From a virus (Duplodnaviria > Caudoviricetes): 50,822 nt of DNA. The stretch is taken from positions 1-50,822 of IMG/VR virus record IMGVR_UViG_3300026302_000105. One strand, written 5' to 3'. The notes below the pieces were generated by a model. It saw only the letters and a program-made list of their open reading frames with translations, did not search any database and was not told the DNA's origin. The translations under genes and the position numbers were made by a program. How positions within the stretch are numbered: position 1 is the first letter of the stretch; every line of letters begins with the position of its first letter. Positions 9,526 through 31,417 of the stretch are shown here, piece after piece.

Positions 9526-10251
9526 TTGTCACTATTCATGACGCTCGATTGTCCGCATTGCTTCGCTCGCACTGCGTCCTTTTCAATAAGAAGTGTCCAC
9601 CTTCTTTCATCAAAGAATATACAAAACATCTACTCAAATGAAATCGAAGTCCATGGAGTTTGCCGCTCCTGCAACCATTCAGTCGTGGCGGGATTTTCCT
9701 ACGTAACGGGATACCAGTTCAGGGCTGACCACCTTCGAGGCGATATCACAAAAGGCTTTAGCGGGAGCGCTATTGGAGGACTTGATCTAAGAGCCAAGAA
9801 GATCTGGCAAGCACCTGAGATCCCAAAATCAGAATTGCCTGACCATCTTCCCGAGAACGTGGTCCGGCCATTAATCGAAGCTGAAACAGCGTTTTCTCAC
9901 GGGCTTTGGGGCGCCGCTGCAGCAAGCTACCGGAAAACGGTCGAGCGCGCCGTCACGCCGCTGATCGACGGCGACACAAATCGAAAAGAGCTGGGCAAAA
10001 AGCTGGGAATGCTAGAGAAGCAGGGGACTCTTCCCGAAGCCATGCTCGAGTGGATTCGCGTCGTCAAAGACCAGGGGAATTTCGCGCTTCACGACAATGA
10101 CTATGACTTTGATGCGAAGGATCAGATCGAGCCTGCTCGGGAGTTCACTATCACCCTGCTCACCTATCTCTTTACCCTTCCAGAGAAGGTGCGCCTCGCG
10201 CGCGCGCTGCCGGAGCCGGAGCAAGACGCTACGGCACCGGAGGGTGCATAG
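9526..10251 (+). CDS. DUF4145 (HEPN-like) protein with N-terminal Zn ribbon; moron
   Basis: CPHC/CRSC motifs; LPENV..PLIEAE...AAASYRKTVE...GNFALH. Visibly lower GC, antisense to late genes. Start is TTG 9526 (AAGGA RBS) or ATG 9538. Confidence 0.85.
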   Translation: MSLFMTLDCPHCFARTASFSIRSVHLLSSKNIQNIYSNEIEVHGVCRSCNHSVVAGFSYVTGYQFRADHLRGDITKGFSGSAIGGLDLRAKKIWQAPEIPKSELPDHLPENVVRPLIEAETAFSHGLWGAAAASYRKTVERAVTPLIDGDTNRKELGKKLGMLEKQGTLPEAMLEWIRVVKDQGNFALHDNDYDFDAKDQIEPAREFTITLLTYLFTLPEKVRLARALPEPEQDATAPEGA

Positions 10252-13200
10252 TCGCAATATTCGCGGCGCGTTGCTGGACCGAGGCGGCGCGCGCCCGGCG
10301 CTGAACCGCTTCAATCTGGAGGCGGATCTCATTGGCTCGTTGCACCCGCTCCGCGCGCGGCAGGTCACCGTTGACCACGGCTGTCAGCTCAGCGCGCAGG
10401 TCGCTCAGCGCTCCATCAGCCAGATCGAGCGGCCGAATGATGCTCTGGCGCCAATCCAGCTGACCGTTGCGCCGGACACCGACATTCATCTCGCCGCTGA
10501 TCTCGTCCCACACCTCCCGAGCCGCTGCATTTTCAGGGTCGGCCTGCAAATCGCTCCACGCCTGGCGCGCCCTGTTCTTCATCTCGGTCAGCTCCTCGCG
10601 CAGATCATAATAGAGGGTCTGCTCCGGGAAGCTGCTGGTCTCCGAGGTGAACGCGCGCGCGATCGGGATGTTGCGCCTTTCCGTCGGCGTGCCGGTGGCC
10701 ATGTCGAGCACTGCACCACCGACCTGCTGCGCGAAGATACCGGTCCCGCCGGTGACGAAGCGATAGAGGTAATCGAGGTGCCCGGGATAAAGGTCGATCC
10801 GGCCAGGGGTATAGGCGTCACCACCAGAGACACGGTTCAGGAACTGCGCAATCTCGACCGCACCGCGAGTGTTGCTGCGCTCAAAGAACTGCGAGGAGCG
10901 CGGCAGGCCCTCGGCGGCGCCGTACCTGTCATCCGGGACGATAGGGGTGTCCATGAAGTTGCGGTTCAGGCGCATGTCGACCAGCGGATCAAGGATCGTC
11001 GGCGTGACCATGTTCTCCCATTGGCCGTCCGCCAGGGGGTTCCACGACATCATGCCGGCGCTGCCGACGTTGCGGATCACCTCCTCGGGCGTGCGACGCC
11101 CCATTGCGGCCAGCATGAGCTCCGAGCCAAGGGCGAGGAACGGGCGCAGAGGGTAGGCCATCCGCCAGTTGACGGTGGTGAGGCGCTGGCGCGTTTGAGG
11201 GCGACCGTCCGGCATAATTACGGTCTCCGTCACGGTCCCGGTCGGAATGATGATGTTGCGGTGCCGGTCGTATTGCGACAGCCGCTCATAGAGCAGGATG
11301 CCCTCGGGATCATCATCGTCCCCCGCCAGCGCGCCCAACAGCGTCTGAAGCGCGCCCAGCACGATGACCGCGGGGAAGGCGACCGCCCAGTTGCGCGGGC
11401 GCTTCGCGAACCGGCCCAGCTTCTCGAGCGACTGGATCGCGGGGTTGATGAAGGCATAGGCCGCCCGTAGCGTCGGCGTGGCGGCTCCGCGACGATAGTA
11501 GTTGGTGGTGGCATCCTGAGCGAGCGCAGCCGCCTTCTCGCGGCTCAGGCCTTGCTCGCGCGCCGCCACATACATCGCCAGTCGCGACGCGCTCTCGATC
11601 GGCTGGTTCAGCTTCGAGATCGCGGTGATCATCGCCTCGCCGGCCGCGGCCATCGCATCACCGGCGGCCGAGGCCTTGGCTTTCAGGCCTGGTGTCGAGC
11701 GACCCGCGCGGCGCGTCATGCGGTCAATGTCGCGCGCAACATCATCCATGTCGCGGAGCGCGACGAAGTTGATCTTGCCCCCGTCGAGCTTCCATTCCTC
11801 GATATACTGCTGCATCCGGCGCTGCTGGGCTGGGCTGACATTCTGGCGCCGCATGATGCGCTGCCGCATCCAGTCAACCGCATCGCCGAACTCGTCGCGG
11901 AAGGCCTCGGTCAGCGCGGGCATGTAGGCCTTGGCATAGGCGGCGGCCATGCCTTTCTTGTCCACGTTGTGCGCGGTCCAGAGCCCTTCGATCAGGTCGG
12001 ACTGCAGGTTCGGCACCGTGAAGTTCGGGTTGAGAGCGGTGGACGTGGCCGCGACCATGCGGGTGACCGCGCCGACGGACACCTGAAAGGATCGCGCGAT
12101 GCGCTCCATGAGCTTGCGCGGATCGTCACCGCCAAGACGGTTCAGGGCGTCCAGAAGATAGGCGTCCTCAATCCGCAGATACACCTTGTCGCCGCCGACC
12201 TTGACCGCCATCGCGTGCCGCGGATCGACATAGCCGAAGTCGACGACATCGCTGACCATCCCGGTCTTGGGGTCCAGCACCTTGCGCGTCGGCAGCTTGC
12301 CGACCACCTCCCAGAGACCGGGTGCCGGATAGGCCTGCACCAGGTTCATCAGCGTCTTTGCCACCCGGTTCTTCTCGGCGCGAACGATGCCTTCCTGCCG
12401 CATGGTGATGATCTGGCTGATTGGATCATCGGCAATTGAAGTCCGCCCCAAGGCGCTTCGCACCTCTTTGCCGCGCATGTCGAAGCCGTTGCCGAGGCGG
12501 CCGATCTGCTCGCCATCATCGCGTTCGGCGAAGCCGCGGAGGGGAACATAGTTCTGATACATGCCGCGCCAGCTCTGGTACTGCTGATCGCTGATCAGAC
12601 CGGCGTTGCGGCGCAGAAGCAGGTCATCGTCCAGCATCTTGCGCAGGCGCTTGGCCAGCGCCTCAAGGGCCGGGACCTTGCCTTGTGCCTGAAGGTCGGC
12701 CAGCAGCGCCTGGGCGGCGCTGTCATGGATGCCGGAGCCGCCACCGGCGGCAAATCGCTGCGGATCGCGCTTCTGCATGACCGCGTTGCGCTCGGGGGCG
12801 TGCTTGGCAACCATGTAGACCCACAGGTCCTCGCGGCTGATGCCGGCCTGCTTCGATGCGCGCTTCATCGCGTCGAAGAAATCCTTCACCTCCCCTTGAA
12901 ACAGGCGCTCCAGTCGCTCCGCAACGCGGGCCGGGAACAGGCTTTGCCGCTGCGAGGCATTCAGCCTGTCCGTCAGCGGCTGTCCGGTCGCTGCCTCGAT
13001 TTCCGCCTGGGCGGCGCGCAGGTAGAGAAACTGGTCCTGGAACGCCTCGCGCACCGCCATGCCGAGACCCCGCTTCGGCAGCGTCCACGACATCGGCAGC
13101 GGCGGCTGGTGGAAGCCTGCCGGCGGGCCGAACTGCGCGTTGGCGCGCTGGATGCGCTCGATTGCAGTCTCCGGCACGCTGGTGTGTGCCGAGGGCTGGC

Positions 13201-16200
13201 CGATTGCCGGGTTGGTCTGCTGGCGGCGGAGGATGGTTGGGATGCGGCTGAACTGCGCTGCGCCCTGACCGCCACCACGCACTTGCCCACGCGCGCCCAC
13301 CTCACCCGCGAGGATCGCGTCGAACACCGACTGAGCATCCCTGAACCCGGCGCCGCGCAGGGCATTGCCGAGGGCCTTGAGGAACCGGCTGATCTGGTTG
13401 AAGGCCCGGGCCAAAACTGGTGTGCGGGGCGCATGCTTGGCGATCCAGGCCTCGGAAAACTCGGCGGCAATGGCCTCCTCGATCTGGCTGATCGGATCGA
13501 GGTCGCGGTAGAGCTCGCGGATGTTGTGCTTGTCCATCCAGGACGCCGCCGCCTCGGCTTCGAGCGCCCGCCATTCCTTCTCGCTGAACAGGCCATATTC
13601 CCGGCCCCAGAGCGCGGGATCGCGAAGCATATGGATCGCCTCGTGGTGCATGGTCGACATGCTGCCCTCGGTCGAATCCAGAGCGACCTGAACCAGTCCC
13701 ATGAGGTAGGAGCCGTCGACCGGCACCACGTTGCCGTCGGCATCGGTGCCCAGGAGGCGATCCACGACACGAAGGCGGATCTCTTCAGGCAGGCCCAGCC
13801 GCTTCCATGCCTGTTGCAGGGCCGTGCCCATGGCGCGGCGCTTCATGTCGAGCTGATCAGCGCTGAAGCTGGAGCGGCGGTAGCGCTCTTCGGCGCGGGA
13901 GAACTTCGGCTCCGCCACCGGATGCGACGGTTCGCTCAAATCAAGCGGCGCCTGCGTCTCCCCGTCCAGCGTCAGGGTGCCGGTGAACGGCTCGACCTGC
14001 GCCAGATCGACGTCGCCAAGATCGTAGGTCAGGGTGATGTGCGGCTGATAGGACGGGAAATCCCACGACGCCCCGGCATCGCGGTATTTCTGCCAGTCCT
14101 CTTGCAGACGGCGCGCGCTGGCGCCGGTGATTGGCAGGACAATGGCTCCTTCGTCGCCCAGTCTCTTGGGTTGCCCGAAATCGGATACCGTGACCGGGCT
14201 GTCGGAGGTGGGCGCCGCGACAGGATCACGGGAAAAAGCCGTGGTGACGTGCAGATCGTCCGCTGCGAGGAGGTTGGTGAAGCCTTGGGCTTTGGCCCAT
14301 TCGACGAGCGCGCCAGGGTTGCTGACGGCGCGGGAGGCATAGAGCGGCGCCGCCTCGGCCTGCGCCTGGATCGGATCCCGGTCGGTCTCTTCGGCCGCGG
14401 CGGTGACGGGCGCGGCGACCAAGACCGGCCCCGCCCGCATGTCGCGCGCCTCGGGTTCGGTGCGGTGCGTCCGGGGCCGTTCGTTGGGCGCATCCACCCA
14501 AGCGCCATCCTTCCGCGAGACGGCCTGCACCGTCGCCGTCCACTCGCCATTCGTGCCGCGGTCGAAGCTGATGACGCGATCATGGCCTCCGCCATAGGTG
14601 CGGACGATGTTACCCGGTGCGAAGTACTCCGCCAGGCGGTCAAGCTGCGCCTCACGTTCGCGCTGCGCCTTGGTGGTGCGCTGTTTCGGCGATGGGGCAG
14701 GCCGCGCCGCCGGCGCATCGAGCAAGTCGCCCTGCGTGTCGAACAACGGCCCGGCGTCGCCCTCATTACCGCCAAGGCGCCGCATCTTGCTCTGCTGCTG
14801 GCGCGCGGCGATCTCGGCGCGCTGACGGTCGCTGACCTGCTGACGCGCCTGGGTGTCGCTGATCTCGGCACCGGGGATGACGGCCTGATCGCCCGCGGCG
14901 GTGCGGTCGGTTACACCCCGATCGGCTGGTTGGGCGCCGGAATCACCGCGCTCATCCCGCCCGCCTTCGCGTTGTCGATCATCTTCTGCAGGTTGTCCCG
15001 ATGCCGCTCGATCGTCGCCCGGCTCTCCGGCGACAGGTTCGCCGCGCTGAGCGAGCGGTTCATCTCCGAAAGGGACTTCTCCCATTTCGGGAGATTGCGG
15101 CTCATCGGCAGCGTTTTCATCGGTGACAGCCTCCTGATAGCTGCGAACAGCCTGGTCGTGCACGGCGTCGTCAATCGAGCCGCCTTCGCGGTTCAGCCGA
15201 TCCACGATAGCGCTGCGCTCGCCTTCGGTCCAGCTTCCACCGATCTCGCCCAGCTTGCGGTCAACTTCCTTCGCAATCCGGTTGATGCGGCGCTGGTTCC
15301 CGCTTGAATCAGCATCGGGCGGCATCACGCGCCGACCGTCAGCCCCCTCGTCGATGGTCTCGTTCAGACCGCGGGCCCGCCGGTCGCGCGCCTCTTGCTC
15401 CATCCGCCGCGCCTCACGCGCGCCATAGCTCACATCGAATGGCGTTCCCGCGGCCTCGCCCGCCAGTGCTTCGATGATCGCCTCACGGTTGGCATAACGC
15501 CCGGTTCCGTCGGTCCCAAGCAGCTGCGCGGCGTCAGTGCCCAGCGTGGCTGGGTCGATGTTGTCGAGATCCGTGGCGCCACCCGGCTTGAACAGGCGGG
15601 GATGCGTTTGCGGTGTGACGCCGCGCGCCGCAAGCTCGCTCGCGGCCCAGCTGGGAACGGTTGCTCCGTTCTGCTGGATCGTCGGCGCGATGCCTCCTTG
15701 GCTCGCGATCTTTGCCATGAGCGGCTGGCGATAACGCAACTCAGGGAACTGCTGCCGAGGCGCCTGCGCATTGCGAGGTGCATATTTCGGCGCCACTTTC
15801 GGCAATTCGGCGCGCCGATCGGCCTCGCGGGCCGCCTCTTCCGCCCTGGCGCGCTGGTTGACCTGAGCCAAGTGCTCACCAATCGGGACGGCCTCATACC
15901 GATCATCTCGCAGGTTTTCGATCTGCGCGCGGCTCGAGGTCTCCATGATGGCCTCGCCGGTTTCCCGGTCTCGGATTACCCAGCTGGCGGGCTCTCGTGC
16001 TGGATCGGCAAAGGAGCCGGGCGCGCTACGCTCGGGCTGCCCAGCCGCAGGCTGATCAACCCGCCCCACAACGGGCTGGGCCTGCGGCTGAACCGGGGCT
16101 GCTGCCTGCCCCACGTCACCTGCTTGCGCGGCAACGGCATCGGTGGCCGCCGGGGCGGCCTGTTCCTCGATCGGCGAAATCACGATGTCGCCGTCTTCGA

Positions 16201-18325
16201 TGTCCTGGCGCGGGAGAACGCTCTCGGTCCCGTCGGCCTCGCGGATGCGGATGCCGTCGGGGTCTTCCCCAAGCACCTCAACCGGGAACGGTTGCTGACC
16301 GCCGATGGATACCCCCATTCGTGCGCGCGCTGCTGCGGCCGGTGGCGGCGCAACCGCTGCACGGCCAGGAGGCAGCGGCGCAGTCGCGACCGCCTGAGGT
16401 TCGGCCGGGACGGGTGCCACGTCCGGCACCTGCCGAGGCACACCGGGGACATAGGGCCGGATGCCGGTGATCTCGGCGCCGCGCTGCACGTCCTCGGGGC
16501 TCGGCTCTTCGCGGGGCGCCCTGACCGGTGCCTCGACCTGCGACCCCATGGCCTGAGCAAGCGCGCCGGTGCCAGCGCCGAGGATGCCGCCGATCAGCGC
16601 CGACTCCGTGACGCCATCCGACCAGCCGCGCTCGGGGTCGTAATACCCTTGCGCGATCAGGTTGTTTAGCGCCTGCGAAGCCGCCTCCTGCGCGGCCTCC
16701 TCGCCCGCGTTTAGAGCGATCTCCCCGAACCGGCGGAACATCGTGCCCGCCACCCTGTCGCGGATGCCCGACGGCAGGAAGCGGAACGCGCGCCCGATCG
16801 GGATCACCTCGCTGGAACCGACCAGCGCGCCCCAACCGGCAGCCGAAAGCGCATCGTCCTGACTGGCGCCAGCCTGAAGCGCTTCCTCGTAGACCTGCCC
16901 GGAATTGCTGGCCGCGCCAATACCGCCGGTGGCGACGATTGCACCACCCGGGCCGCCAAGCGCGCCACCGGCCAGCGCCGCCCCGAGGAAGGCCGACATG
17001 GACCCGGCGCCCTGGGCAAGCGATGCCCAGAAGGACGGATCATCGGGCGGCGTCCCGAAGGTGTCGGCAAACCTGGCGCGCAGGCCCTCCGCAGCCCCAC
17101 GGAAATCCACAGGCTCCTGCTGGCCAGCGACGGCCTGCTGGCCGGCCGCAATGCCGGAAAGACGCTCCTGCCCCACCTGCATATCGGCGATTCGCTGAGC
17201 AAGGATTGCCCGCTCTTCATCGCGAAGGGATGGATCGGCGAGACGCTGCTGCATTTCCATGATGGTGCGCGCGCGCTCTTCCTGTAGACCGGTCGCAGCC
17301 TCACGAGTTCCGGCGCTGGCCGGCGTGTCGGCCAAGGATGCCGCTGTCTGCAACGCATCGAGGCCCATGAGCGACGACACCAGCATCTCGTTGGCGCCCA
17401 GGCCGAACTGCTGGGCCCGACGCTGCAGGAGCGCCCCAATGCCCTCCCCGGCGAAGGGATCCGCCGCCGCGGCCCGTTGCTCCTCGACGCCGCGCATGAC
17501 GCCCTCGACGTACTCGGGCTGCATGGTGCGGGCTTCCAGCGCACGGATCTCCTCGGAGACGCGCGCGATGTCGGCCTCGATCTCGGGCCGCTGCTGTTCC
17601 GAAGCAGATGCGAGCTCAGCCTCGAGGTTCCTCAGCGTGCCCCGGGCACGCTCCATCATTCCCGCATCATAGGTGATCGGCGTGCGCGGGATCGGCGCGG
17701 TGCTGCCCATGGGCGCGGCGCCCGTCTCATGCCGGTAATCGCTCGGCGCCTGGAATTCACCGGACCAGAGGCCGAGACGGGCCGCCTCTGCCGCTTGGGC
17801 CTCACGCGAATACTGCTCGCCCATGTAAGGCAGCGCAGCCCCCGCGCCGACCATGCGGCGATTGAGGTCGGTGGTGCCTGACATCAGCGTGCCCAGGAGG
17901 CGCTGATAGCGATCGGTCCCGCTGAACTCCGGCTGCGATGGGTTCGCCTCCATCAGGCGCGTGAGCATGTCGGTCGACCACTGGCCCGCGGGCCACTCGC
18001 CGTCCGCACGCTGACCGGTCTGCGAGCTTTCCGGCGCGTCGATGCCGGTCATCCGCATCGAGCCCTCGGATGTTCTCACCGTGTCGCCGTCGATTGGCGC
18101 CGGCTGCACGGCAGGCGCTGCCGGGGGCGGCGTGTAAATCGAGGCAGGGCGCGGCTGCGGGCTCGGAGCGGCCGCCGCTGGATCCAGCCCGAGCGCCCGG
18201 TAAACCTCGCCGCGCGGTCGCTCCGCATAGAAGCGCTGATGCAGGGCATCGGCGAGGTCGTTGTCCGACATCTCGCCATACTGAGGATACCGCGCCCGGA
18301 TGTCCGCGATAGTGATGGTGGACAT
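10229..18325 (-). CDS. Giant ejection-type polyvalent protein: SNase + Acb1-like 2H phosphodiesterase + HExxH peptidase + LPD38
   Basis: 2698 aa, last of three ejection-position genes. DGDT/GIDAPE/DRYQR; LHVT/PHIT; HHEAIH; C-terminal LPD38-like NRNFMDTPIVP...PGHLDYL..FVTGG. Confidence 0.85.
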   Translation of the reverse strand: MSTITIADIRARYPQYGEMSDNDLADALHQRFYAERPRGEVYRALGLDPAAAAPSPQPRPASIYTPPPAAPAVQPAPIDGDTVRTSEGSMRMTGIDAPESSQTGQRADGEWPAGQWSTDMLTRLMEANPSQPEFSGTDRYQRLLGTLMSGTTDLNRRMVGAGAALPYMGEQYSREAQAAEAARLGLWSGEFQAPSDYRHETGAAPMGSTAPIPRTPITYDAGMMERARGTLRNLEAELASASEQQRPEIEADIARVSEEIRALEARTMQPEYVEGVMRGVEEQRAAAADPFAGEGIGALLQRRAQQFGLGANEMLVSSLMGLDALQTAASLADTPASAGTREAATGLQEERARTIMEMQQRLADPSLRDEERAILAQRIADMQVGQERLSGIAAGQQAVAGQQEPVDFRGAAEGLRARFADTFGTPPDDPSFWASLAQGAGSMSAFLGAALAGGALGGPGGAIVATGGIGAASNSGQVYEEALQAGASQDDALSAAGWGALVGSSEVIPIGRAFRFLPSGIRDRVAGTMFRRFGEIALNAGEEAAQEAASQALNNLIAQGYYDPERGWSDGVTESALIGGILGAGTGALAQAMGSQVEAPVRAPREEPSPEDVQRGAEITGIRPYVPGVPRQVPDVAPVPAEPQAVATAPLPPGRAAVAPPPAAAARARMGVSIGGQQPFPVEVLGEDPDGIRIREADGTESVLPRQDIEDGDIVISPIEEQAAPAATDAVAAQAGDVGQAAAPVQPQAQPVVGRVDQPAAGQPERSAPGSFADPAREPASWVIRDRETGEAIMETSSRAQIENLRDDRYEAVPIGEHLAQVNQRARAEEAAREADRRAELPKVAPKYAPRNAQAPRQQFPELRYRQPLMAKIASQGGIAPTIQQNGATVPSWAASELAARGVTPQTHPRLFKPGGATDLDNIDPATLGTDAAQLLGTDGTGRYANREAIIEALAGEAAGTPFDVSYGAREARRMEQEARDRRARGLNETIDEGADGRRVMPPDADSSGNQRRINRIAKEVDRKLGEIGGSWTEGERSAIVDRLNREGGSIDDAVHDQAVRSYQEAVTDENAADEPQSPEMGEVPFGDEPLAQRGEPVAGEPGDDRAASGQPAEDDRQREGGRDERGDSGAQPADRGVTDRTAAGDQAVIPGAEISDTQARQQVSDRQRAEIAARQQQSKMRRLGGNEGDAGPLFDTQGDLLDAPAARPAPSPKQRTTKAQREREAQLDRLAEYFAPGNIVRTYGGGHDRVISFDRGTNGEWTATVQAVSRKDGAWVDAPNERPRTHRTEPEARDMRAGPVLVAAPVTAAAEETDRDPIQAQAEAAPLYASRAVSNPGALVEWAKAQGFTNLLAADDLHVTTAFSRDPVAAPTSDSPVTVSDFGQPKRLGDEGAIVLPITGASARRLQEDWQKYRDAGASWDFPSYQPHITLTYDLGDVDLAQVEPFTGTLTLDGETQAPLDLSEPSHPVAEPKFSRAEERYRRSSFSADQLDMKRRAMGTALQQAWKRLGLPEEIRLRVVDRLLGTDADGNVVPVDGSYLMGLVQVALDSTEGSMSTMHHEAIHMLRDPALWGREYGLFSEKEWRALEAEAAASWMDKHNIRELYRDLDPISQIEEAIAAEFSEAWIAKHAPRTPVLARAFNQISRFLKALGNALRGAGFRDAQSVFDAILAGEVGARGQVRGGGQGAAQFSRIPTILRRQQTNPAIGQPSAHTSVPETAIERIQRANAQFGPPAGFHQPPLPMSWTLPKRGLGMAVREAFQDQFLYLRAAQAEIEAATGQPLTDRLNASQRQSLFPARVAERLERLFQGEVKDFFDAMKRASKQAGISREDLWVYMVAKHAPERNAVMQKRDPQRFAAGGGSGIHDSAAQALLADLQAQGKVPALEALAKRLRKMLDDDLLLRRNAGLISDQQYQSWRGMYQNYVPLRGFAERDDGEQIGRLGNGFDMRGKEVRSALGRTSIADDPISQIITMRQEGIVRAEKNRVAKTLMNLVQAYPAPGLWEVVGKLPTRKVLDPKTGMVSDVVDFGYVDPRHAMAVKVGGDKVYLRIEDAYLLDALNRLGGDDPRKLMERIARSFQVSVGAVTRMVAATSTALNPNFTVPNLQSDLIEGLWTAHNVDKKGMAAAYAKAYMPALTEAFRDEFGDAVDWMRQRIMRRQNVSPAQQRRMQQYIEEWKLDGGKINFVALRDMDDVARDIDRMTRRAGRSTPGLKAKASAAGDAMAAAGEAMITAISKLNQPIESASRLAMYVAAREQGLSREKAAALAQDATTNYYRRGAATPTLRAAYAFINPAIQSLEKLGRFAKRPRNWAVAFPAVIVLGALQTLLGALAGDDDDPEGILLYERLSQYDRHRNIIIPTGTVTETVIMPDGRPQTRQRLTTVNWRMAYPLRPFLALGSELMLAAMGRRTPEEVIRNVGSAGMMSWNPLADGQWENMVTPTILDPLVDMRLNRNFMDTPIVPDDRYGAAEGLPRSSQFFERSNTRGAVEIAQFLNRVSGGDAYTPGRIDLYPGHLDYLYRFVTGGTGIFAQQVGGAVLDMATGTPTERRNIPIARAFTSETSSFPEQTLYYDLREELTEMKNRARQAWSDLQADPENAAAREVWDEISGEMNVGVRRNGQLDWRQSIIRPLDLADGALSDLRAELTAVVNGDLPRAERVQRANEIRLQIEAVQRRARAASVQQRAANIATMHPPVP

Positions 18326-18337
18326 GGTGGGTCTCCC

Positions 18338-18985
18338 TCAGGCGGGTGGCAGGCTGAACAGTCCGAGCGGGTCGTTGGGGTCGATGGCTGGCGCGGCCTG
18401 CGCTGCGGAAGGAAGAGGGACAGTGGCAGGCGCAGTTGCCGCGCTGCCTCGCCTCTGAGGCGCCGGCACAGGGTTTCCCTCTCCATCGAGGAAAGGCATC
18501 ATCTCGCCGCTGGCGGTGCGGCCGAACATGAAGCCGTCAATCTCATACTGGCCGTAAAGCCTCGGGCGCGATCCTCCTGCCGCACTGGACGCGCCACCCG
18601 CGCGCGGCGCCGACGATCTGCTGGCGCCACGGCCGGTGCCGGAAGCGCCAGGAAGCCGCAGTTCCTGCCGCAGCATGGTCGATGCGATGGACTCCAGAGG
18701 TCCGGGCAGGTCGCCCGATGACAAGACCGAAAGGAGATCCCGCGCGCGCTGTGTTGCGGCGCCCCCGGCCAGTTGGTTCAGCGCTTGCTGGCCGCTGACG
18801 TAGTTGCGCTTCTCGTCCATCTGCTGCGCGCGCCCTCCGATCATGGCCGAGGCCAGCGGTGCGAGAGCTGCGAGAAGAGGTGAACCAGACTGCTGCGCGC
18901 TGGAATTGGCGCCGCTGAGGGCCGACATGATCATGGGTAGCGCCTGCGCATTGCCCGCCATCCCACCGCCGAAAGCCTTGGCCAT
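18338..18985 (-). CDS. Putative internal virion/ejection protein
   Basis: Ala/Gly/Gln-rich; ends DPNDPLGLF; lies between pilot gene and giant gene. Confidence 0.65.
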   Translation of the reverse strand: MAKAFGGGMAGNAQALPMIMSALSGANSSAQQSGSPLLAALAPLASAMIGGRAQQMDEKRNYVSGQQALNQLAGGAATQRARDLLSVLSSGDLPGPLESIASTMLRQELRLPGASGTGRGASRSSAPRAGGASSAAGGSRPRLYGQYEIDGFMFGRTASGEMMPFLDGEGNPVPAPQRRGSAATAPATVPLPSAAQAAPAIDPNDPLGLFSLPPA

Positions 18986-20052
18986 CAGTGTACCCCCTCG
19001 CCGCGCATCTCACGCTCCATCACCTCGATCCGTCGCAGTGCCGATTGCAGGGCGCCGGCGAGAAGCCCGAGGTAGTCGATCACGTTGATGGTGCGGCCGT
19101 CGCCCAGCCCGGTGATGTCGCGGAAATGCTCGGCCATCGGGCCGATGTGTTGCTCGCCATGATCGCCGGCCGGCCGGTTGCTGTCGCGATAGCGCCACAC
19201 CGCCAGCGGCATCCTGCTCAGGGCTTCGGCTGCCCATGCGTCGCGCAGAGGGCCATCGATTTCCTTCGCCTCCATCGTGCATTTCAGAAGCATGCTTGCG
19301 CCGAGGCCACCCAGAGTGCTGGCGGTGTTCATTCTCTGCGCCTGCTGCGCCTGATACTGGGCCATTTCGTTCTGGTACTGCTGGCCGACCAGCCCCGAAT
19401 AATTCACGCTGGCCATGCTGCCCGACGGCATTGCATTCGGGGGGTTGTAGCCGCCGCCCATCGCCGCGGCGATCTCGGACATGGCGTTCTGGCGCAGGGC
19501 CGCGTCCAGCCCGAATTGCCGCGATTGCTCCTGGCCGGACGCGATGTCGGCATCCATGGCCAGCCGCGAGATCGTGTCCTGGGTTTGCTTGAGCTGCTCA
19601 CCATAGGCGTCATTGAAGCCCTCGGCCCCGACCGGGATACCGCGGGCCTGCAGGTTCGTCAGCAGGCGCTCGTTTGCCTTGTCGATCCCGGGAGACATCA
19701 TGGAGAACGCCCGGTCGAAGATCGACTGCGCGACATCACCCCGGTCTTGGACCTGCAAGCCCTGCGACAGAGTGCCCATGGACTGATCCAGCACGGTCCG
19801 CCCGAGGTCAATCGATGCGGGCTCGAACATCTGGCGCAGCGCCTGCTCGAACGGGCTCTCCACGTATTTCTGTGCGGCCTGCGCGCCCTGCGGAGCGACG
19901 CCCTGCACGAACTGCCCGGTAATGGGGTCCGTATAGCCGTTCAGGATCGACGAGCCGCCGGCGGAATAGATGTCCGGCCGGTTGAATTGCGCCTCGGCTG
20001 AGGCGGTTTCATACGGGTCCGGCGCTTCCGGTGCGTTGCTGCCCTTGCCCAT
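18985..20052 (-). CDS. Ejection/pilot protein with C-terminal peptidase S74-like chaperone domain
   Basis: MGKGS.APEAPDPYETA N-terminus, Gln-rich body, then WRY...HIGPMAEHF...IDYLG. Confidence 0.75.
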   Translation of the reverse strand: MGKGSNAPEAPDPYETASAEAQFNRPDIYSAGGSSILNGYTDPITGQFVQGVAPQGAQAAQKYVESPFEQALRQMFEPASIDLGRTVLDQSMGTLSQGLQVQDRGDVAQSIFDRAFSMMSPGIDKANERLLTNLQARGIPVGAEGFNDAYGEQLKQTQDTISRLAMDADIASGQEQSRQFGLDAALRQNAMSEIAAAMGGGYNPPNAMPSGSMASVNYSGLVGQQYQNEMAQYQAQQAQRMNTASTLGGLGASMLLKCTMEAKEIDGPLRDAWAAEALSRMPLAVWRYRDSNRPAGDHGEQHIGPMAEHFRDITGLGDGRTINVIDYLGLLAGALQSALRRIEVMEREMRGEGVH

Positions 20053-20473
20053 CGCTGATCCACCTGCATTCGTCTCTGAACATCTTCAGGACTAGCAGCG
20101 GGCCGCCGTCATGTGCGGCGAATGCCACGATCGCCTCCCCCTTGAACCCCAGCTTGGTCGCGAGATTGAGGGACGGAAGGTTGCTGCCAGGCACGGTCAC
20201 CGAAATCGCGTGACAGCCCAGCTGGATGAACGGAAAGGCGAAGAGCTTGAAAAGAGCGCTCCTGCTGGCCCATCCGCTGCCCGGCTCGGCAGCGATCGAC
20301 ACCTCGCAATGGACGCCGTTGAAGCGCTCATACATCACCCCGGCGACCAGTCCCGTCCCGCGGACGACACCAAGCGCCTTGGCGCCATCGCTGATCGACA
20401 TGCCGGGTATTCTCTTGGCGACCCACCTGCTGACCAGATGGTCGGCGCCATAGAGTACGTCGTCGACCAGCAT
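20009..20473 (-). CDS. GNAT-family N-acetyltransferase-like protein
   Basis: LVAGVMY...FPFIQLGC...N.PSLNLATKLGFKGE; TGATG coupling to the upstream gene. Confidence 0.8.
   Translation of the reverse strand: MLVDDVLYGADHLVSRWVAKRIPGMSISDGAKALGVVRGTGLVAGVMYERFNGVHCEVSIAAEPGSGWASRSALFKLFAFPFIQLGCHAISVTVPGSNLPSLNLATKLGFKGEAIVAFAAHDGGPLLVLKMFRDECRWISDGQGQQRTGSAGPV
20089..20123 (-). promoter_or_regulatory. Possible late promoter D (degenerate)
   Basis: ATTCGCCGCACA-N17-TAGTCC, 60 bp upstream of the pilot gene, inside the GNAT CDS. Confidence 0.4.
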
Positions 20474-21921
20474 CAAAGCACCCCGGCGCGCAGGCTGGTC
20501 AGCTCGCACCATTCCGCTGAAAGCTCGATGATCAGCTTGAAGGTCTCGCCCACCGCATCGACGGGAATCAGGTCATCCAGCGCGAAGAGTTGCCCGCGAC
20601 CGCGATGCGTCTCCAGAACCACCGTCTGTTTCGCCTCTCGAATATCGCGCGGGGTTTCCTGGTGATCGCTCAGCACGGTGATGCTGACGGTGACCTCGGA
20701 CGCCGCCGTCATCCCAATCTTTAGGAAGGTGATCCCGGTGGCGCGCGGCATCCTGAACCAGCCTGTCACCAAGCGGGCCGCGATCAGGTCGCCCTCCTTC
20801 GCCTGAACCACCCGGCAAAGTCGGCCATCATCGGCGGTGAACTCGGTGGCCGTCCCGAGGTTGTGCCAGGCAACGGCCGGGAAGTCAGCCTTCGCCCATG
20901 AGCCATCCTTGGGCCGGAATATGAACTGCTCGATCGTCTCCGCGATCCTGTTCACCACCACCATTGATCCGTCGTCGGCAGTGTGCATCTGCCAGCGCGC
21001 AGGCGTGGCGGCCATCTCCGTCACCTCCTCGGAGATCGCGGCCGAGACTGCGCCGACCAGCGCCAGCACGCTCTGCCGGATGGAATCGGAGAGCGAGATC
21101 ACCCCGGAGGCCGTGAACATCCAGAGATCGGCGCCCACCTGGGTGAAGGCCTCGCCGCCGAGAGGAGCGGCTGCGTTCACGCGGGTCAGAAGGCGCCAGT
21201 CGTTCGGATCGCCAGGATCCAGTCCCTCATAGGCCACTATCACGCCGGTGGTGGTGATAACCGCCAGCGTGTCGTTCATGCCGTGCCCGGCGTCGATCGT
21301 CATGCTGCGCAGGGCCGACAGCGAGCCGGTGATGTTGCCCAGCCGGCCCAGTGGAAACCTGATCCAGTTGCCGGATACTGCGCCCACCGTCTCGGGGTAG
21401 TAGAAATCGAGCGTCCCGCCCCGCACCCAGAACAGGAGCCGGTCCTGGTGCGCGATCACGCCGCTGAAGGTTGCCGGATTGACGCCCGCGATCTCGATCG
21501 ACATCTGCGTGAAGGCCGTCCCATCGAAGCGCACGGGCAAGCCTAGGCCATCAGCGATGATGGCGTTCCCGCTGATATAGGCGACATCGCAGGTGGCGGA
21601 ACTGGCGCGGGTGATGCTGGCCTCGCCGCACACCAGCCGGTCGGCGTGGACCTCGATGTAGCGCGTCTCGGAACCGAACTCGAACGGAATGCGCCGCAAG
21701 ACGGTCGAGGGCGCGGAAAGGGCCTGCACCTGGCGGCGCAACCGAAGCGATGAACCTGTGCTTTCCCAATTCAGGAACTCCCCTGCATAGATGCCGCTCA
21801 CCTCTGAGGTCTTGGCCTCGGTGTAGAGCCCCTTCAGCGGCAGCGGGATCGGGATCTCGCGCGCGAGCGCCCCGCCCGAGGCCCTTGTTGCCGCTCTCGC
21901 TCTCGCCCACTTCATGTTCAC
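20473..21921 (-). CDS. Tail hub/nozzle (P22 gp10-like head-closure) protein
   Basis: ~480 aa, beta-propeller-like composition; between adaptor and ejection genes. Confidence 0.65.
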   Translation of the reverse strand: MNMKWARARAATRASGGALAREIPIPLPLKGLYTEAKTSEVSGIYAGEFLNWESTGSSLRLRRQVQALSAPSTVLRRIPFEFGSETRYIEVHADRLVCGEASITRASSATCDVAYISGNAIIADGLGLPVRFDGTAFTQMSIEIAGVNPATFSGVIAHQDRLLFWVRGGTLDFYYPETVGAVSGNWIRFPLGRLGNITGSLSALRSMTIDAGHGMNDTLAVITTTGVIVAYEGLDPGDPNDWRLLTRVNAAAPLGGEAFTQVGADLWMFTASGVISLSDSIRQSVLALVGAVSAAISEEVTEMAATPARWQMHTADDGSMVVVNRIAETIEQFIFRPKDGSWAKADFPAVAWHNLGTATEFTADDGRLCRVVQAKEGDLIAARLVTGWFRMPRATGITFLKIGMTAASEVTVSITVLSDHQETPRDIREAKQTVVLETHRGRGQLFALDDLIPVDAVGETFKLIIELSAEWCELTSLRAGVL

Positions 21922-22544
21922 ACCTTGATCAGCCAGTTGACGCCAATGACGGGCGGCAGGATGTCGATGCTGGCCCCGCCTCCCGTCTCCTCGATCGAGA
22001 TCCCGGTCACAGCCTGTTCCACCGTGCCGTCGGCCGAGGTGTCGCCTGTGGTGCCGGCCTCGGCCGCTCCGACATCCGTGCCCTCAGCGGCGGCAGCATC
22101 GACGACGGCGGCAGCGGAATGGCTGTGGGGGGTTGGGTTAAAGCTGTGGCCGTGGCCAGGGTCCGTAACGGCGTGCCCGTGGGCAGGAAGCTGGCTGACC
22201 GAGAGCGTGATCAGACGGTTGCCCGCAAGCGCGCCCAGGGCGACATCGCCACCGGCGCCGAACATGGCGCGTCCCTGAAGGTTTGGCAGGTTGAAGTTGG
22301 CCTCGGTCGCCCCATAGGCATCCCCGATGATCGCATAGAGGTCGGCGAACGCGGCCTTGGAGAGCGCCTGCCCGTTCAGCAGCTTCCATGAGGCATTGGG
22401 CTCCTCCGAGGCCATCGTCGGAACGATGGATCCCGTGGGAATCAGCAGCGTCTCGATCGCAGCGATGATCTCTTCAAGGTTGTCGTCGGGAATGTCATAG
22501 GTTCTGGTGCGCCGGCGGTTTCTCGTGACCGCTGGGATCGCCAT
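21918..22544 (-). CDS. Tail collar domain protein
   Basis: PTGSI...WKLLNGQ...LYAIIG..YG...FNLPNLQGR...QLPAHGH. Confidence 0.85.
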   Translation of the reverse strand: MAIPAVTRNRRRTRTYDIPDDNLEEIIAAIETLLIPTGSIVPTMASEEPNASWKLLNGQALSKAAFADLYAIIGDAYGATEANFNLPNLQGRAMFGAGGDVALGALAGNRLITLSVSQLPAHGHAVTDPGHGHSFNPTPHSHSAAAVVDAAAAEGTDVGAAEAGTTGDTSADGTVEQAVTGISIEETGGGASIDILPPVIGVNWLIKV

Positions 22545-23491
22545 CAGGACACCAGCCAGCGCCCGCCGCCCAGCGGGAGCGCGTCATATTCGGTCGCGCA
22601 TGCGCCGATGCGGAAAGGGCGGGCGCCACCTGCATCGGTGGCGGCAGCCACAGCCATCTCCGCCTCATAATCGGCGGCATGCTCCGCATAGGGCAGCCCG
22701 AGGGCGCGGCGGAGGCGATACGTCATGCCCAACGAAAGGACGTGATCGTCGGAGAAGACGGGGCGATCATCATCGGCCGTAAACTCGGGGCGCCGCACCT
22801 CGGGGATCGGTTGGCTCAGGGCTTGCGGGTTCACGCGCTTCAGGATCTCGCTGGGCTCGACCGGCCAGACCCCCTCGTCCCAGCCCGGGGGCGTCTCGTC
22901 GAAGGTGATGTTGCCGCTGCCATCCGGGGATTCCAGCACCGTCGACGGGGCCAGCCAGCCATCGCGGGGCACCACCGGCTCGATGGTGACAGGCAGGTTG
23001 CTGGCCGCATAATCGCCAGACTTCACCGGCGAAACCACCGGGTAGCGCGAGATATACTCGATCACCACCAGTTCGGTCGCCTGCGGGACTGGCTCGATGT
23101 TCAGCGTGTTGTTCTTGATCCGCCAGCCCATCGGTGAGGCGACGGCGGCGCCACCATAGAGCCAAGCGGCCCAAGCTTGGGGCGTGGCTGGGCCGATCAG
23201 GCCCATGGGATAGGCGCCGCGCGTTTCGGTGCCGGGGATCATGCGCAGAAAGTCGGGTGGCAGCTGGTAGGAAAAGCGTCCCGGCAGCAGGGAAAAGACC
23301 CATTGCGAATGGAAGTCGGAGAGCCCCACGAATTCGGTGCCGCGCAGGTATTCCCGCATCGTGTCCACGGCGGCAATACGAAGCGCCCGGGCGATGCGGG
23401 TGTTCTCGGTGAAAAGCGAACGAGGCGGCGGGGCGGTATTGTCCCGCTCCGCCGCCTCCCGCGCGATTTCAAGGATGGTTCGCGTCCCCAT
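22544..23491 (-). CDS. Head-tail adaptor (tail tubular A/gp4-like)
   Basis: TILEIA..., Y.LPPDF, WRIKNNTLNIEP motifs; position after capsid. Confidence 0.7.
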   Translation of the reverse strand: MGTRTILEIAREAAERDNTAPPPRSLFTENTRIARALRIAAVDTMREYLRGTEFVGLSDFHSQWVFSLLPGRFSYQLPPDFLRMIPGTETRGAYPMGLIGPATPQAWAAWLYGGAAVASPMGWRIKNNTLNIEPVPQATELVVIEYISRYPVVSPVKSGDYAASNLPVTIEPVVPRDGWLAPSTVLESPDGSGNITFDETPPGWDEGVWPVEPSEILKRVNPQALSQPIPEVRRPEFTADDDRPVFSDDHVLSLGMTYRLRRALGLPYAEHAADYEAEMAVAAATDAGGARPFRIGACATEYDALPLGGGRWLVS

Positions 23492-23503
23492 GTCCGCCCC
23501 CGA

Positions 23504-24247
23504 TTATGCGAGCGGATCGCTCAGCAGGTCGTTGTTGCCTTGTACCGAGGAGAAATCGGACTCTTCACCGATGCCAGGCATGGTGGACGGATCCGGCAGA
23601 TCCTCGCCCTCCGCTTCGGCGGCGGCCGGCGCCGCAGGAGCTGCCCGGCCACCCATGCTGGACAAAGCGTCGTTCTTCGCCGCCAGCGCGGCGTTCTGCG
23701 CCTCAAGCCGGGCGATGGTGGCGCGCAGCTCGCGCGCTTCCTGGTCGCGCCTGGCCTCACGCTCGGCCTCGCTGATCTTGTCCGAAGCGGCATCGCGGCG
23801 CCCGGCCCATCCGGTTGCGAGCTTGTGGGCCACGGCGATCTCGCGCCCGATGTTCTGCGCCTGATCGGCTGAGAGGCTGCAGAGATCTTCGACGCTGCGG
23901 ATGCCGGAAATGAGGAGCTGACCGACCTGCGACATGGTGATGCCTGGGAGTTCCGTCAGCGGCGTGCCGGTCGACGGCAGGTCAGCGCTGCGGGTGAAGG
24001 CGTCATACTGCGCGGGGAAGCGCTCGCGGGCCTCCTTCTCGTCGATGTACTTGGTGGAGATCGTGTAGCGGTCGCCAATGGGCGTCATGGCCACGCAAAG
24101 CTGGGTGCGGAAGGCCGACTTGCCGCGGGACTGGGGGACGCGCTGGTAGAAGAAATGGGCGCTCACACCACCTTCGCCTCGTGAGGCGACGAAGCCCAGG
24201 TGCGAGCTGAGATCCTTGGCGGTGGCGTCCGAGACATAGGCGTTCAT
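23504..24247 (-). CDS. Hypothetical protein with HhH-like segment and coiled coil
   Basis: GTPLTELPGI...GIRSVEDL; GGAG RBS. Confidence 0.75.
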   Translation of the reverse strand: MNAYVSDATAKDLSSHLGFVASRGEGGVSAHFFYQRVPQSRGKSAFRTQLCVAMTPIGDRYTISTKYIDEKEARERFPAQYDAFTRSADLPSTGTPLTELPGITMSQVGQLLISGIRSVEDLCSLSADQAQNIGREIAVAHKLATGWAGRRDAASDKISEAEREARRDQEARELRATIARLEAQNAALAAKNDALSSMGGRAAPAAPAAAEAEGEDLPDPSTMPGIGEESDFSSVQGNNDLLSDPLA

Positions 24248-24277
24248 GCTTTACTCCGTGGGGCGAGAAGCGGGGAA

Positions 24278-24300
24278 GCGCGGGCGAAGGCCGCCCGCGC
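24278..24300 (-). terminator. Hairpin downstream of major capsid gene
   Basis: Perfect 9-bp stem GCGCGGGCG/CGCCCGCGC, 5-nt loop, pyrimidine-rich tail. Confidence 0.6.
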
Positions 24301-24307
24301 CACTCGA

Positions 24308-25264
24308 TTACTGCGAGAGAACGCCGTTCAGCATCCGGTTGTTGCAGATGAAGTTGCCCATGCCGGCAAGGATCGAGGTCTCGGAGTCCTCGGTCAGGGG
24401 GCGTTTGGGGCCACCCAGAACGACGTTGTTCCGGTTCTTGTGCATGATCATCTCGATCGTGCCCAGGTTCAGGAAGCGCATCGCCGCCGGAGCATAGCCG
24501 CCCATGCCCCCGTCGAAGACGACCGGCGTGGTGTGGAACATGAGGTTGTCGAAACCGGCGGCCGCCAGTTTCTTGTCCATGAACCGCTGCTGCTGCTGGA
24601 TGCCGGTCGCATAGGCCGTGTACCAGGTGTTGTCCGAGTAGATCAGGTTCGGCTTGTCGGTCCCGCGCTGCAGCTTCATGTAGAGCGCCAGCATGTCCTC
24701 GTAGGCGGTATCCTTGTCGGGCGCCGAGCCGGTCGCGACCCGCTGGTTGTCCCACCAGGTATAGGTGCCGGAGTTGATGCCGCCATAGGTCGAGCCGGCC
24801 GCCGACGAGATCATCAGCTGCATGCCGCCCATTTCCTTGCCGCCGGAGCCGGTGCCGTCGCCATGCGCGGACTTGTGCAGCTGGTTCTGGATGGTCTTCT
24901 CGGCGTGCTGCATCCGGGCGCGCATCTGGTTGATGATCTGCTCGGAGCCGCTGTTCTGCAGCATTTCGAGGCCCGACATCGAGACGGCGACGGCATATTG
25001 CTTCCACGGCACCTCGGCGTCGGTCAGGACTTCCTGCCCGGCGACGTTCAGGGCATCACGCCCGGTGTACCATTGGAAGTTGGCGTTCTCGTCCCCGACC
25101 ATGATCGGCGTGAGGATGGTATAGCCGCCGCCGATGGTGCGGATGCGGCCGCGCCGGCGCAGCTCGTACAGCAGGATGTTGTTCTTCGAGATGGCATCCG
25201 CGATTGCCTTGCGACGATGCGCAAGGGTCGACGCAAGCACCTCACCCCAGGTCGGATTCGCCAT
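24308..25264 (-). CDS. Major capsid protein
   Basis: 318 aa after scaffold; strong AAAGGAGA RBS; highly biased codons; GGY.I..PI, WKQYAV.V, GF.NL motifs. Confidence 0.88.
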   Translation of the reverse strand: MANPTWGEVLASTLAHRRKAIADAISKNNILLYELRRRGRIRTIGGGYTILTPIMVGDENANFQWYTGRDALNVAGQEVLTDAEVPWKQYAVAVSMSGLEMLQNSGSEQIINQMRARMQHAEKTIQNQLHKSAHGDGTGSGGKEMGGMQLMISSAAGSTYGGINSGTYTWWDNQRVATGSAPDKDTAYEDMLALYMKLQRGTDKPNLIYSDNTWYTAYATGIQQQQRFMDKKLAAAGFDNLMFHTTPVVFDGGMGGYAPAAMRFLNLGTIEMIMHKNRNNVVLGGPKRPLTEDSETSILAGMGNFICNNRMLNGVLSQ

Positions 25265-25293
25265 TGTGTTCTCCTTTCGGCGAATCCCGCGCT

Positions 25294-26490
25294 TCAGCCG
25301 CTGAAATGCGAGCCGACGAAGTGCCTCAGCGTCTCATCCAGAGACGCATCCGCTCTCAACGCGGGTTGACGGGTGGCGCCCTGGCCGGTGCCGTCGATTG
25401 ATTTGCTGGCACGCTGCGCCTTCTGGGCAGCGGCCGCCTTGTCTTTCACCTGTTCTGCCACCGTCTTCTGTGGCTGTGCGGCGGGAGTGGGCGCTGGAGC
25501 GGCCTGATAGCCGGTCGCGGCCCGAAGCTCGGCCTCAGCGGTGGTGTAGAAGCGGCCCAGATCCTCCTCGGTCACCGGCCGCCCGGTGGCGCGCAGGTGC
25601 TCCTGCGCCAGCCCAGCAATACGTCCTTCGAGGTGCTTGAACAGCGGGCGAAGAGGCTGGCCATCGGGGCCGGTGGCATTGACGAAGCTGGTGAGCCGGT
25701 CGCGAGCGTCTTCGGCGGCGCGACGCAGGGGCGCGTCGGGGCCGAACTGCGCGGCCTGTTGCTGCCGGGCTTTAAGCTGGCGGTTCTCCTCGTAGACGGC
25801 GCGGGTCCGCTCGTCCATGAATTCGAGGTCATCGTCGTCGGACTGATCCTTGACCAGCTTGTAACCGAGGTGCTTGGCGGCATTCTCCAGCACCTGCGCG
25901 GGATTGTCGCCGCCGGTCTGCTGGGCGACCCAAGCGAGGTATTCGTCCGGCTTTTGCTGGGCGAAGGCGTTCAGGTCGAGCATGCGCTTCATTGCGGTGG
26001 CAGCATCGACGCCGTGGAGCTTCATCTCGGCTTCGCGCCCCTTGAAGATGCCCAGCACGCTGTCGGCCTGACCGATGCGGCGGGTAATCTCTCCGCGGCG
26101 GGCGTCGTCGAGGCCGGACAGCAGGTCCGAGGTGCTGGCGCTGGTCAGATCAGCCGGAAGGTCGTCCTTGGCGGCGGCCTGGGTGTCCTCGCCATCCGCC
26201 GCCGGAGCGGTATCATCGCCACCGACGCCCGGCTGGGCATCCTCGGCCTTGGCCTGAACATCTTCCTTGGGTGCGCCCTTGACCTTGGCGTCGTCGATCA
26301 GGCCGAGGCCATCCTCTTCGGAGATCGTCTCGACAACCACCTGGTCTTCGATCGGGGCGTCCAGTCCGAGGCCGTCGTTCTCTTCCTCGTTCTGCGCCTT
26401 GAGCAGAGGCTCGATCGCGGCGCGCAGCTGCGCGTCCAGCTCGTCGTCCTCGTGACCGTTTTCGTCGATGTCGTCGTTGAAGTCAGGCAT
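25294..26490 (-). CDS. Capsid scaffolding protein
   Basis: Acidic N-terminus, helical body, directly upstream of capsid. Confidence 0.75.
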   Translation of the reverse strand: MPDFNDDIDENGHEDDELDAQLRAAIEPLLKAQNEEENDGLGLDAPIEDQVVVETISEEDGLGLIDDAKVKGAPKEDVQAKAEDAQPGVGGDDTAPAADGEDTQAAAKDDLPADLTSASTSDLLSGLDDARRGEITRRIGQADSVLGIFKGREAEMKLHGVDAATAMKRMLDLNAFAQQKPDEYLAWVAQQTGGDNPAQVLENAAKHLGYKLVKDQSDDDDLEFMDERTRAVYEENRQLKARQQQAAQFGPDAPLRRAAEDARDRLTSFVNATGPDGQPLRPLFKHLEGRIAGLAQEHLRATGRPVTEEDLGRFYTTAEAELRAATGYQAAPAPTPAAQPQKTVAEQVKDKAAAAQKAQRASKSIDGTGQGATRQPALRADASLDETLRHFVGSHFSG

Positions 26491-26523
26491 GTCGCTCTCC
26501 GTGGGGTGAAATCGCGTGTGATC

Positions 26524-26558
26524 ACGATGTCAGCCCGGGGGCGCGACGTGCGGCGAAA
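26524..26558 (-). promoter_or_regulatory. Putative late promoter C
   Basis: TTTCGCCGCACG-N17-CATCGT, intergenic before scaffold-capsid. Confidence 0.7.
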
Positions 26559-26560
26559 CG

Positions 26561-27285: not shown

Positions 27286-27374
27286 GCTTGGCTCCGCAGA
27301 ATTGCGCGCTCGATCGCGTCGATGATTTCGCGTTGGCGCAGAAGCGCAGCGCGCATCTGTTCTGCCCAGGACAT
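27282..27374 (-). CDS. 30-aa micro-ORF (MSWAEQMRAALLRQREIIDAIERAILRSQA)
   Basis: Not in the ORF track. GAGGAGG RBS, TGATG overlap upstream, ATGA overlap downstream. Confidence 0.6.
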   Translation of the reverse strand: MSWAEQMRAALLRQREIIDAIERAILRSQA

Positions 27375-27643: not shown

Positions 27644-27660
27644 CGTGGGAATGCTCCTGT

Positions 27661-31403: not shown

Positions 31404-31417
31404 CGCCGCGCCCTCGG

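Follow-up and report, generated by a model that had tools for sequence, protein, structure and literature searches.

The anti-CBASS enzyme Acb1 is known from phage T4, where it is the product of gene 57B, and from Erwinia phage FBB1 (PDB 7T26/7T27), in both cases as a free protein of about 150 amino acids directed against the nucleotide signals used in CBASS (cyclic oligonucleotide-based antiphage signalling). Hydrolysis of 3'3'-cGAMP, cUA, cAAA and cAAG is the activity that characterises it. The roles reported for its residues comprise a catalytic tetrad made up of two HxT motifs, stacking aromatics at Y12, W74, F107 and W147, and E141, which contacts N6 of adenine (Hobbs 2022; PMC9117128). 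Domains of the same 2H fold had been described in polyvalent proteins, and also in fusions to MuF or portal proteins, by a purely computational study carried out before Acb1 and CBASS were discovered; it lists 2H and LPD38 as confined to polyvalent proteins of the phage type and suggests that such 2H domains could degrade the nucleotides of nucleotide-activated host defences (Iyer 2017; PMC5512222). The present analysis concerns a 2H domain embedded in a giant protein of 2698 amino acids that is encoded by a prophage, viral DNA (Duplodnaviria; Caudoviricetes) contained in IMG/VR as record IMGVR_UViG_3300026302_000105. The window referred to throughout is the whole stretch analysed, 50,822 nucleotides (positions 1 to 50,822 of that record), and all features discussed lie on its minus strand. 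The giant open reading frame (ORF) spans 10229..18325 and the domain occupies residues 1328-1464 (13934..14344). The reading favoured here, with a probability of roughly 0.55, is that the domain belongs to the Acb1 family of 2H phosphodiesterases, is competent in catalysis and forms one cargo module of a polyvalent protein, which would be packed in the capsid, ejected with the DNA and hydrolyse CBASS-type signals.

Assignment of the domain to the Acb1 family is supported by sequence profiles and by a structural model. The Pfam family Acb1 (PF23474) matches residues 1328-1464 with an E-value of 3.3e-29; the score is 101.9 bits, where the cut-off stands at 27, and the match takes in profile positions 3-140 of 144. 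In a profile search of the whole lysogen genome the same domain scores 108.4 bits and is the only Acb1 domain found. Among the PHROG families it matches phrog_755, which carries the old label of T4 57B, 'RNA ligase' (E 2.8e-19), and a phmmer search of the PDB sequences retrieves Acb1 itself (7t26, E 6.7e-8). Given the Pfam score and the phmmer match to 7t26, the domain lies far beyond what a chance pair of HxT motifs would produce. When it was aligned with 24 short relatives and modelled by AlphaFold2, a confident model was obtained (predicted local distance difference test, pLDDT, 91.7; predicted template modelling score, pTM, 0.85), in which confidence falls at both ends, and linkers rich in Ala, Pro and Glu flank the domain on both sides. 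Foldseek ranks phage FBB1 Acb1 (7t26) first for this model (E 5.2e-10, TM score 0.74/0.81, 28% identity), followed by the phage enzyme PDE-9 (9q2y) and then by E. coli LigT. The VIA-align comparison gives Acb1 (7T26) a Z score of 17.5, with a root-mean-square deviation of 1.7 Å over 131 of 137 residues; PDE-9 reaches 14.5, and the scores of LigT and further 2H enzymes are near 10.8. A preliminary description of the window, made from the sequence alone, had placed an Acb1-like 2H phosphodiesterase with two HxT motifs at 13940-14350, as a module bounded by low-complexity linkers, and had suggested its comparison with Acb1 and LigT; all of this agrees with the domain as delimited here, and the strings it quoted are found within window 13958-14347, at PLYASR (residues 1327-1332), HVTT (1359), GAIVL (1393), HITL (1429) and PFTGTLTLDGE (1446-1456).

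The residues that would carry out catalysis are in place. The reference used for the alignment was a T4-type Acb1 from a phage record, whose annotated protein is numbered one below the scheme of Hobbs 2022; in that scheme Y1329, H1359, T1361, F1423, H1429, T1431 and E1456 of the giant protein align to Y12, H44, T46, F107, H113, T115 and E141, respectively. The domain thus has in common with the T4 and FBB1 enzymes the Pfam family, the 2H fold, the HxT/HxT tetrad, the Tyr and Phe stacking positions and the adenine-contacting Glu. The first motif, H1359-V-T1361 (14243..14251), and the second, H1429-I-T1431 (14033..14041), align to the first and second HxT of T4-type Acb1, and in 165 relatives, among them 50 giants, the first-motif column holds H in 164 and T in 163, the second H in 164 and T in 156, the other nine having S. 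At the C-terminal edge of the domain (13931..13960, which also takes in the lid position, residue 1465), E1456 occupies the place of the Glu that contacts adenine and is E in 162 of the 165. The F1423 column contains aromatic residues or His and nothing else (Y in 87, F in 41, W in 26 and H in 11), and the other aligned catalytic and contact columns are kept in 156-164 of the relatives. A degenerate, non-catalytic domain retained in a structural protein as a spacer or binding module might be expected between low-complexity linkers and might have shed the lid Trp of Acb1, as this one has; since 156-164 of the 165 relatives, giants included, retain the His and Thr of the active site, and the model is so confident, a dead domain is very unlikely.

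Fusion of Acb1 to virion proteins appears, from the sequences collected, to be a recurrent and common arrangement. A full-library search with the 151-residue domain (E <= 1e-3) returned 1765 representative proteins, and among the best 150 of these 35 are longer than 1500 residues; a length-restricted search found 25 other proteins of 1657-4381 residues, every one of them with PF23474. In the seven giants that were scanned, PF23474 is accompanied by LPD37, LPD38, LPD39, LPD1, LPD5, InPase, ART-PolyVal, MuF_C or NUDIX. In IMG/VR, 571 stretches encode a relative. Among the best 80 of these loci, 62 proteins measure 401-800 residues, mostly with the domain at the C-terminus, while six are giants, six fall between 801 and 1500 residues, five between 201 and 400, and a single one has 200 or fewer. 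All ten IMG/VR loci scanned for domains join Acb1 to a head protein, namely a portal in eight cases (Phage_portal_3 in six, one of them with an ADP-ribosyltransferase, Phage_portal in one and Portal_Mu in one), a prohead protease of family S78 in one and DUF2213 in one. On two viral contigs (L007 and L008) related giants adjoin genes for head closure, 'DNA ejection' and tail fibres. The comparative data thus depict a common strategy, embodied in giants, three portal families and prohead proteases, rather than an oddity of one locus.

The same arrangement is met in cultured phages, where 41 records match at E <= 1e-9 under the annotations portal, head protein, prohead protease or hypothetical protein, none of them under a giant; of the 562 cultured-phage records, the weaker bulk consists of 57B genes of T4-like phages, the T4-type sequences being 28-31% identical to the domain. 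The portal of cyanophage Pam3 (PDB 8hds, chain A) matches the domain at its residues 460-604 (E 4.2e-9), and the words 'phosphoesterase' and 'ligase' are absent from the main text of the Pam3 structure paper. Together with the fusions in Pseudomonas phage phiPSA1, the Rhizobium RHEph phages and Roseobacter phage DSS3P8, the Pam3 portal belongs to the same Acb1 clade as the domain, is 35-44% identical to it and likewise places it on a protein of the head interior; these fusions differ in that a portal or protease, rather than an LPD38 giant, serves as anchor and in that most of those sampled retain the lid Trp. In the bacterial family of the host, Acb1 matches above the cut-off were found in 7 of 301 genomes, in open frames of 170-2702 residues. 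As separate observations, one IMG/VR contig (L081:8285-11563) encodes a 1093-residue protein composed of portal, Acb1 and an ADP-ribosyltransferase (ADPrib_exo_Tox), and in the T4-like Shigella phage JK45 the 57B (Acb1) gene has as its neighbours the gene of the tail-fibre chaperone and that of an internal virion protein; an adjacency to ipI is noted in Hobbs 2022 (PMC9117128).

The class to which this locus belongs has already been published, since the 2H prediction dates from 2017, and the locus is one more good example of it rather than a new one. Like the polyvalent proteins of Iyer 2017, the giant protein is a chain of several effectors that also bears an HExxH module and an LPD domain, and its gene is surrounded by genes for virion proteins. 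The preliminary description had surmised that 2H domains in polyvalent proteins may already be catalogued, which they were (Iyer 2017; PMC5512222); taken as a whole its interpretation is supported in part, namely as regards the Acb1-family 2H fold, the position in a virion module and the missing lid Trp. In the available texts of Hobbs 2022 and the Doherty preprint (10.1101/2025.08.21.671373), the words 'fused', 'polyvalent' and 'virion' are absent, and a literature search that extended to neither subscription journals nor supplementary files turned up no activity test of a fused Acb1.

Whether the domain would reach the next host cell depends on the giant protein to which it is attached. The giant gene is flanked on the same strand by terminase, portal, head, tail and tail-fibre genes. 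Upstream of it lies a structural module (18338..32905, from PHROG matches) with small and large terminase, portal, major head protein, tail proteins, a 482-residue phrog_5107 protein, an acyltransferase and a virion structural protein, the last two, an acyl-CoA N-acyltransferase (phrog_4470, 20009-20512) and the virion structural protein (18985-20052), being found just upstream of the giant gene; downstream follow two tail-fibre genes (4342-7377 and 7675-8367; phrog_38670 and phrog_11355). In tblastn searches the giant protein aligns with Ruegeria phage 45A6 over residues 1543-2592 (29.2% identity, E 3e-90) and with 933W-like Shiga toxin (Stx) phages from residue 1697 or 1762 to residue 2581 or 2592 (about 25% identity, E about 1e-49), and no phage record covers 80% of it. 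The C-terminal 30-39% is homologous to the giants of 45A6 and of the Stx phages.

Two related giants have been detected in virions. The gp47 protein of phi24B (2811 residues, LPD5/LPD1/LPD38) is reported in the virion proteome, is unseen in the cryo-electron microscopy map and has been proposed to be an encapsidated ejection protein (10.64898/2026.04.10.717836), and gp69 of Burkholderia phage JC1 (4515 residues, LPD38) yielded 51 unique peptides from virions purified on caesium chloride (PMC9144972). The giant protein is homologous to phi24B gp47 and to JC1 gp69 and Bcep22 gp75 (about 4500 residues) in the C-terminal LPD38 region and occupies the same place in the podovirus structural module. 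In the Bcep22-like JC1 the gene order is reported as acetyltransferase, virion proteins and LPD38 giant (PMC9144972), and the order of acetyltransferase or acyltransferase, virion protein and giant is the same at this locus. The relatives differ from the giant protein in that the domain lists given for phi24B gp47 (LPD5/LPD1/LPD38/MuF-C) and for JC1 gp69 (LT-like, methylase, helicase, LPD3, LPD38) name no 2H domain and in that the N-terminal two thirds cannot be aligned. The 'ejection-protein position' assigned to the gene in the preliminary description is thus a reasonable designation, the place being that of giant LPD38 proteins found in the virions of related podoviruses. Since mass spectrometry detected proteins related to its C-terminal part in purified virions, the giant protein is likely to be delivered by the virion. 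More generally, a 2022 paper from the group of Iyer 2017 portrays polyvalent proteins as virion-embedded and injected (PMC9503650). For ejected anti-CBASS proteins, Gp15 of ICP3, an ejectosome protein reported to inhibit the CBASS effector CapV (10.1101/2025.07.23.666291), provides a precedent; unlike the giant protein, it has no 2H domain and inhibits its effector stoichiometrically rather than degrading the signal.

The location of the gene within the late structural operon also bears on a different explanation, according to which the enzyme does act on immune nucleotides, mainly in the cell that produces it. Because the giant protein would be expressed late with the structural genes, such action is conceivable: its translation would coincide with the triggering of CBASS by products of the capsid, terminase or protease genes, the fusion would serve co-expression with virion proteins, and delivery to the next cell would add little. 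Evasion of Type I CBASS has been linked to virion assembly proteins (10.1101/2023.05.21.541620), which fits this explanation. A further point in its favour is that a capsid would have room for no more than a few copies of an ejection protein. The repeated independent fusion of Acb1 to proteins of the head interior, be they portals of three families, prohead proteases or giants, nevertheless argues for selection on packaging and not merely on timing. Even stand-alone Acb1 is reported in particles, those of a Vibrio phage, by a 2024 preprint. An enzyme working mainly in the producing cell appears unlikely.

On the favoured reading, that of an Acb1 module delivered with the virion, the following course may be envisaged. 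The giant protein would be made late, with the structural genes, and probably be packed into the capsid of a podovirus resembling Bcep22 and 933W, from which it would be ejected with the DNA. Once inside the cell, the Acb1 module could act free, possibly after release by the HExxH module that follows it in the chain, or while still tethered; it would hydrolyse adenosine-containing cyclic di- and trinucleotides of the CBASS type by metal-independent acid-base catalysis at the HxT/HxT tetrad, and loss of the signal would blunt effector activation. Packaging is suggested by the virion proteomics of relatives that share the C-terminal region, and on this course the enzyme might act 'before any phage expression', as envisaged in the preliminary description. 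Should the enzyme be both active and delivered, phages would pre-load a signal-degrading counter-defence in the particle, which would alter the view of when immunity of the CBASS type acts and when it is evaded.

Several points weigh against this reading and must be considered with it. With regard to the active site, alignment with T4-type Acb1 shows the lid Trp (W147 in Hobbs 2022) replaced by Glu1465, the aromatic lid that the preliminary description had found 'not obvious'; moreover, the second stacking Trp, W74, has no clear counterpart, since its region varies and aligns poorly and the position inferred for it lacks an aromatic. According to the Doherty preprint, T4 Acb1 lacking residues 145-152, that is the lid, failed to trigger Panoptes, from which its authors infer that catalysis was lost (10.1101/2025.08.21.671373). 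With regard to delivery, the homology to proven virion proteins from which packaging would follow extends over the C-terminal part only, and the few enzyme molecules carried by each virion may have little effect if CBASS fires late in infection. A local target was not found, since a profile search of the lysogen's own genome gave no match to SMODS (CD-NTase) or Csm1; SMODS is present in 18 of the 301 genomes of the host's family, so a selective target does exist among potential hosts. Finally, in a Pfam scan no peptidase family matches the HExxH module, and in an unfiltered VIA search its top rows, although nearly all zincins, all remain below a Z score of 8, which makes release of the Acb1 domain by this module speculative.

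Because the Trp lid is missing, the domain is assigned here to the Acb1 family by sequence and structure, and equivalence to T4 Acb1 in function is not taken as proven. The lid column holds W in 82 of the 165 relatives; the Trp is missing in 44 of the 50 giants and present in 76 of the 115 shorter relatives, a count that is biased, since relatives were sampled for their similarity to a query without the lid and the length-restricted search alone contributed 15 of the 50 giants. In a FastTree phylogeny of 240 domain sequences the copy in the window falls within a clade of 11 leaves (support 0.95), alongside nine giants, and a single clade of lid-less giant copies is not claimed, because the backbone support of this tree is 0.17. 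The 2H enzyme PDE-9 of Burkholderia phage BCSR5 (9Q2Y/9Q2G), which has a related core, demonstrates a modular lid that may be placed at the other terminus; its lid is N-terminal, and specificity is reported to be set by the core and not by the lid (10.1101/2025.08.21.671373). PDE-9 is a free enzyme with this N-terminal lid, whereas no lid element was identified on either side of the domain in the giant protein. It might be speculated that the Acb1 cores embedded in giants constitute a distinct functional variant, in which loss of the lid Trp, an element that T4 Acb1 requires and that restricts its pocket to di- and trinucleotides, leaves the pocket open or differently closed and shifts the substrate range, for instance towards type III CRISPR signals, the larger cyclic oligoadenylates, or away from decoys such as 2'3'-c-di-AMP, and which would arrive pre-made from the capsid and disarm signalling defences before phage gene expression; we regard this as a tentative and rather improbable extension of the favoured reading. 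For T4 Acb1, the inability to cleave cyclic tetra-adenylate (cA4) is ascribed to a pocket that accommodates only two or three bases (PMC9117128). The lid-less giant copies in any case pose a concrete biochemical question, concerning replacement of the lid and changed specificity, that is answerable with the existing Acb1 assays.

The missing counterparts of the lid Trp and of W74 would equally suit a 2H enzyme that works on RNA ends or other nucleotides, for example as a 2',3'-cyclic phosphodiesterase, a Usb1-like RNase or a phosphodiesterase of the 2'-5' oligoadenylate type, perhaps in concert with the SNase domain in the same chain on host nucleic acids. An RNase role or the degradation of 2'-5' oligoadenylate were indeed the first options named in Iyer 2017 (PMC5512222), and LigT_PEase matches the domain just below its threshold (22.8 as against 23.3 bits). 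This match has to be set against an Acb1 profile that scores 79 bits above LigT, a structural comparison in which LigT, Usb1 and the CPDases trail Acb1 by about 7 Z units, and the Glu by which Acb1 reads N6 of adenine, kept throughout nearly the entire set of relatives (162 of 165). Nor was an RNA ligase family found among the window proteins that were scanned, the scans covering part of the ORFs in the window. A role on RNA ends or other nucleotides is thus held to be improbable, slightly more so than action confined largely to the producing cell.

The HExxH module that might release the Acb1 domain extends over residues 1489-1659 (13349..13861), behind the Acb1 domain in the chain, and contains the motif HEAIH at residues 1561-1565 (window 13631-13645). 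The module recurs in nine other giants, all nine of which keep HExxH, and an alignment of 9 rows shows no variation at H87, E88, H91, E142 and E143. Its AlphaFold2 model is of moderate quality (core pLDDT 66-92) and finds nothing in Foldseek at E <= 0.001; its neighbours in the VIA search include anthrax lethal factor (Z 7.8), PPEP-2 (Z 7.1) and PPEP-3 (Z 6.7) as well as PprI and ArdC, while an Atlas search with the module leads to LPD23 and LPD1 clusters only. Motif and model together suggest a zincin-like module, possibly a self-processing peptidase.

As to the remainder of the giant ORF, its codon-position GC (guanine-plus-cytosine) content is like that of real genes here, with a third-position value of 0.80. 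It matches the PHROG giant families phrog_10691, phrog_14770 and phrog_616 (the last with E 6.1e-65), and Pfam places SNase, Acb1 and LPD38 in one chain. By its domain content it is a phage-type polyvalent protein, in which several unrelated effector domains and an LPD domain are combined and whose gene lies among virion and packaging genes, and it is a candidate ejection protein. LPD38 (PF18857, E 8.5e-27) covers residues 2346-2555 (10661..11290) within the conserved C-terminal region, residues 1760-2584 (10574..13048), that is common to the giants of the 933W-like Stx phages and of Ruegeria phage 45A6. Slices of the giant protein comprising residues 190-600, 600-830, 830-1200, 1200-1327 and 1465-1760, together with the neighbouring ORFs, gave nothing above threshold in Pfam. 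Three hydrophobic segments were detected on the Kyte-Doolittle scale (19-residue window, mean >= 1.3), a Gly/Ala-rich one at residues 445-465 (16931..16993) and two more at residues 576-594 and 2312-2337, and these may insert into a membrane. In the roughly 800 bases downstream of the giant gene (9403-10228) no minus-strand ORF exceeds 51 residues. At the other end of the gene, the staphylococcal-nuclease (SNase) domain occupies residues 90-188 (17762..18058; PF00565, E 2.2e-11, 44.6 bits where the cut-off is 21; phrog_452, endonuclease), and such a thermonuclease N-terminus is an unusual head for a protein of the ejection type.

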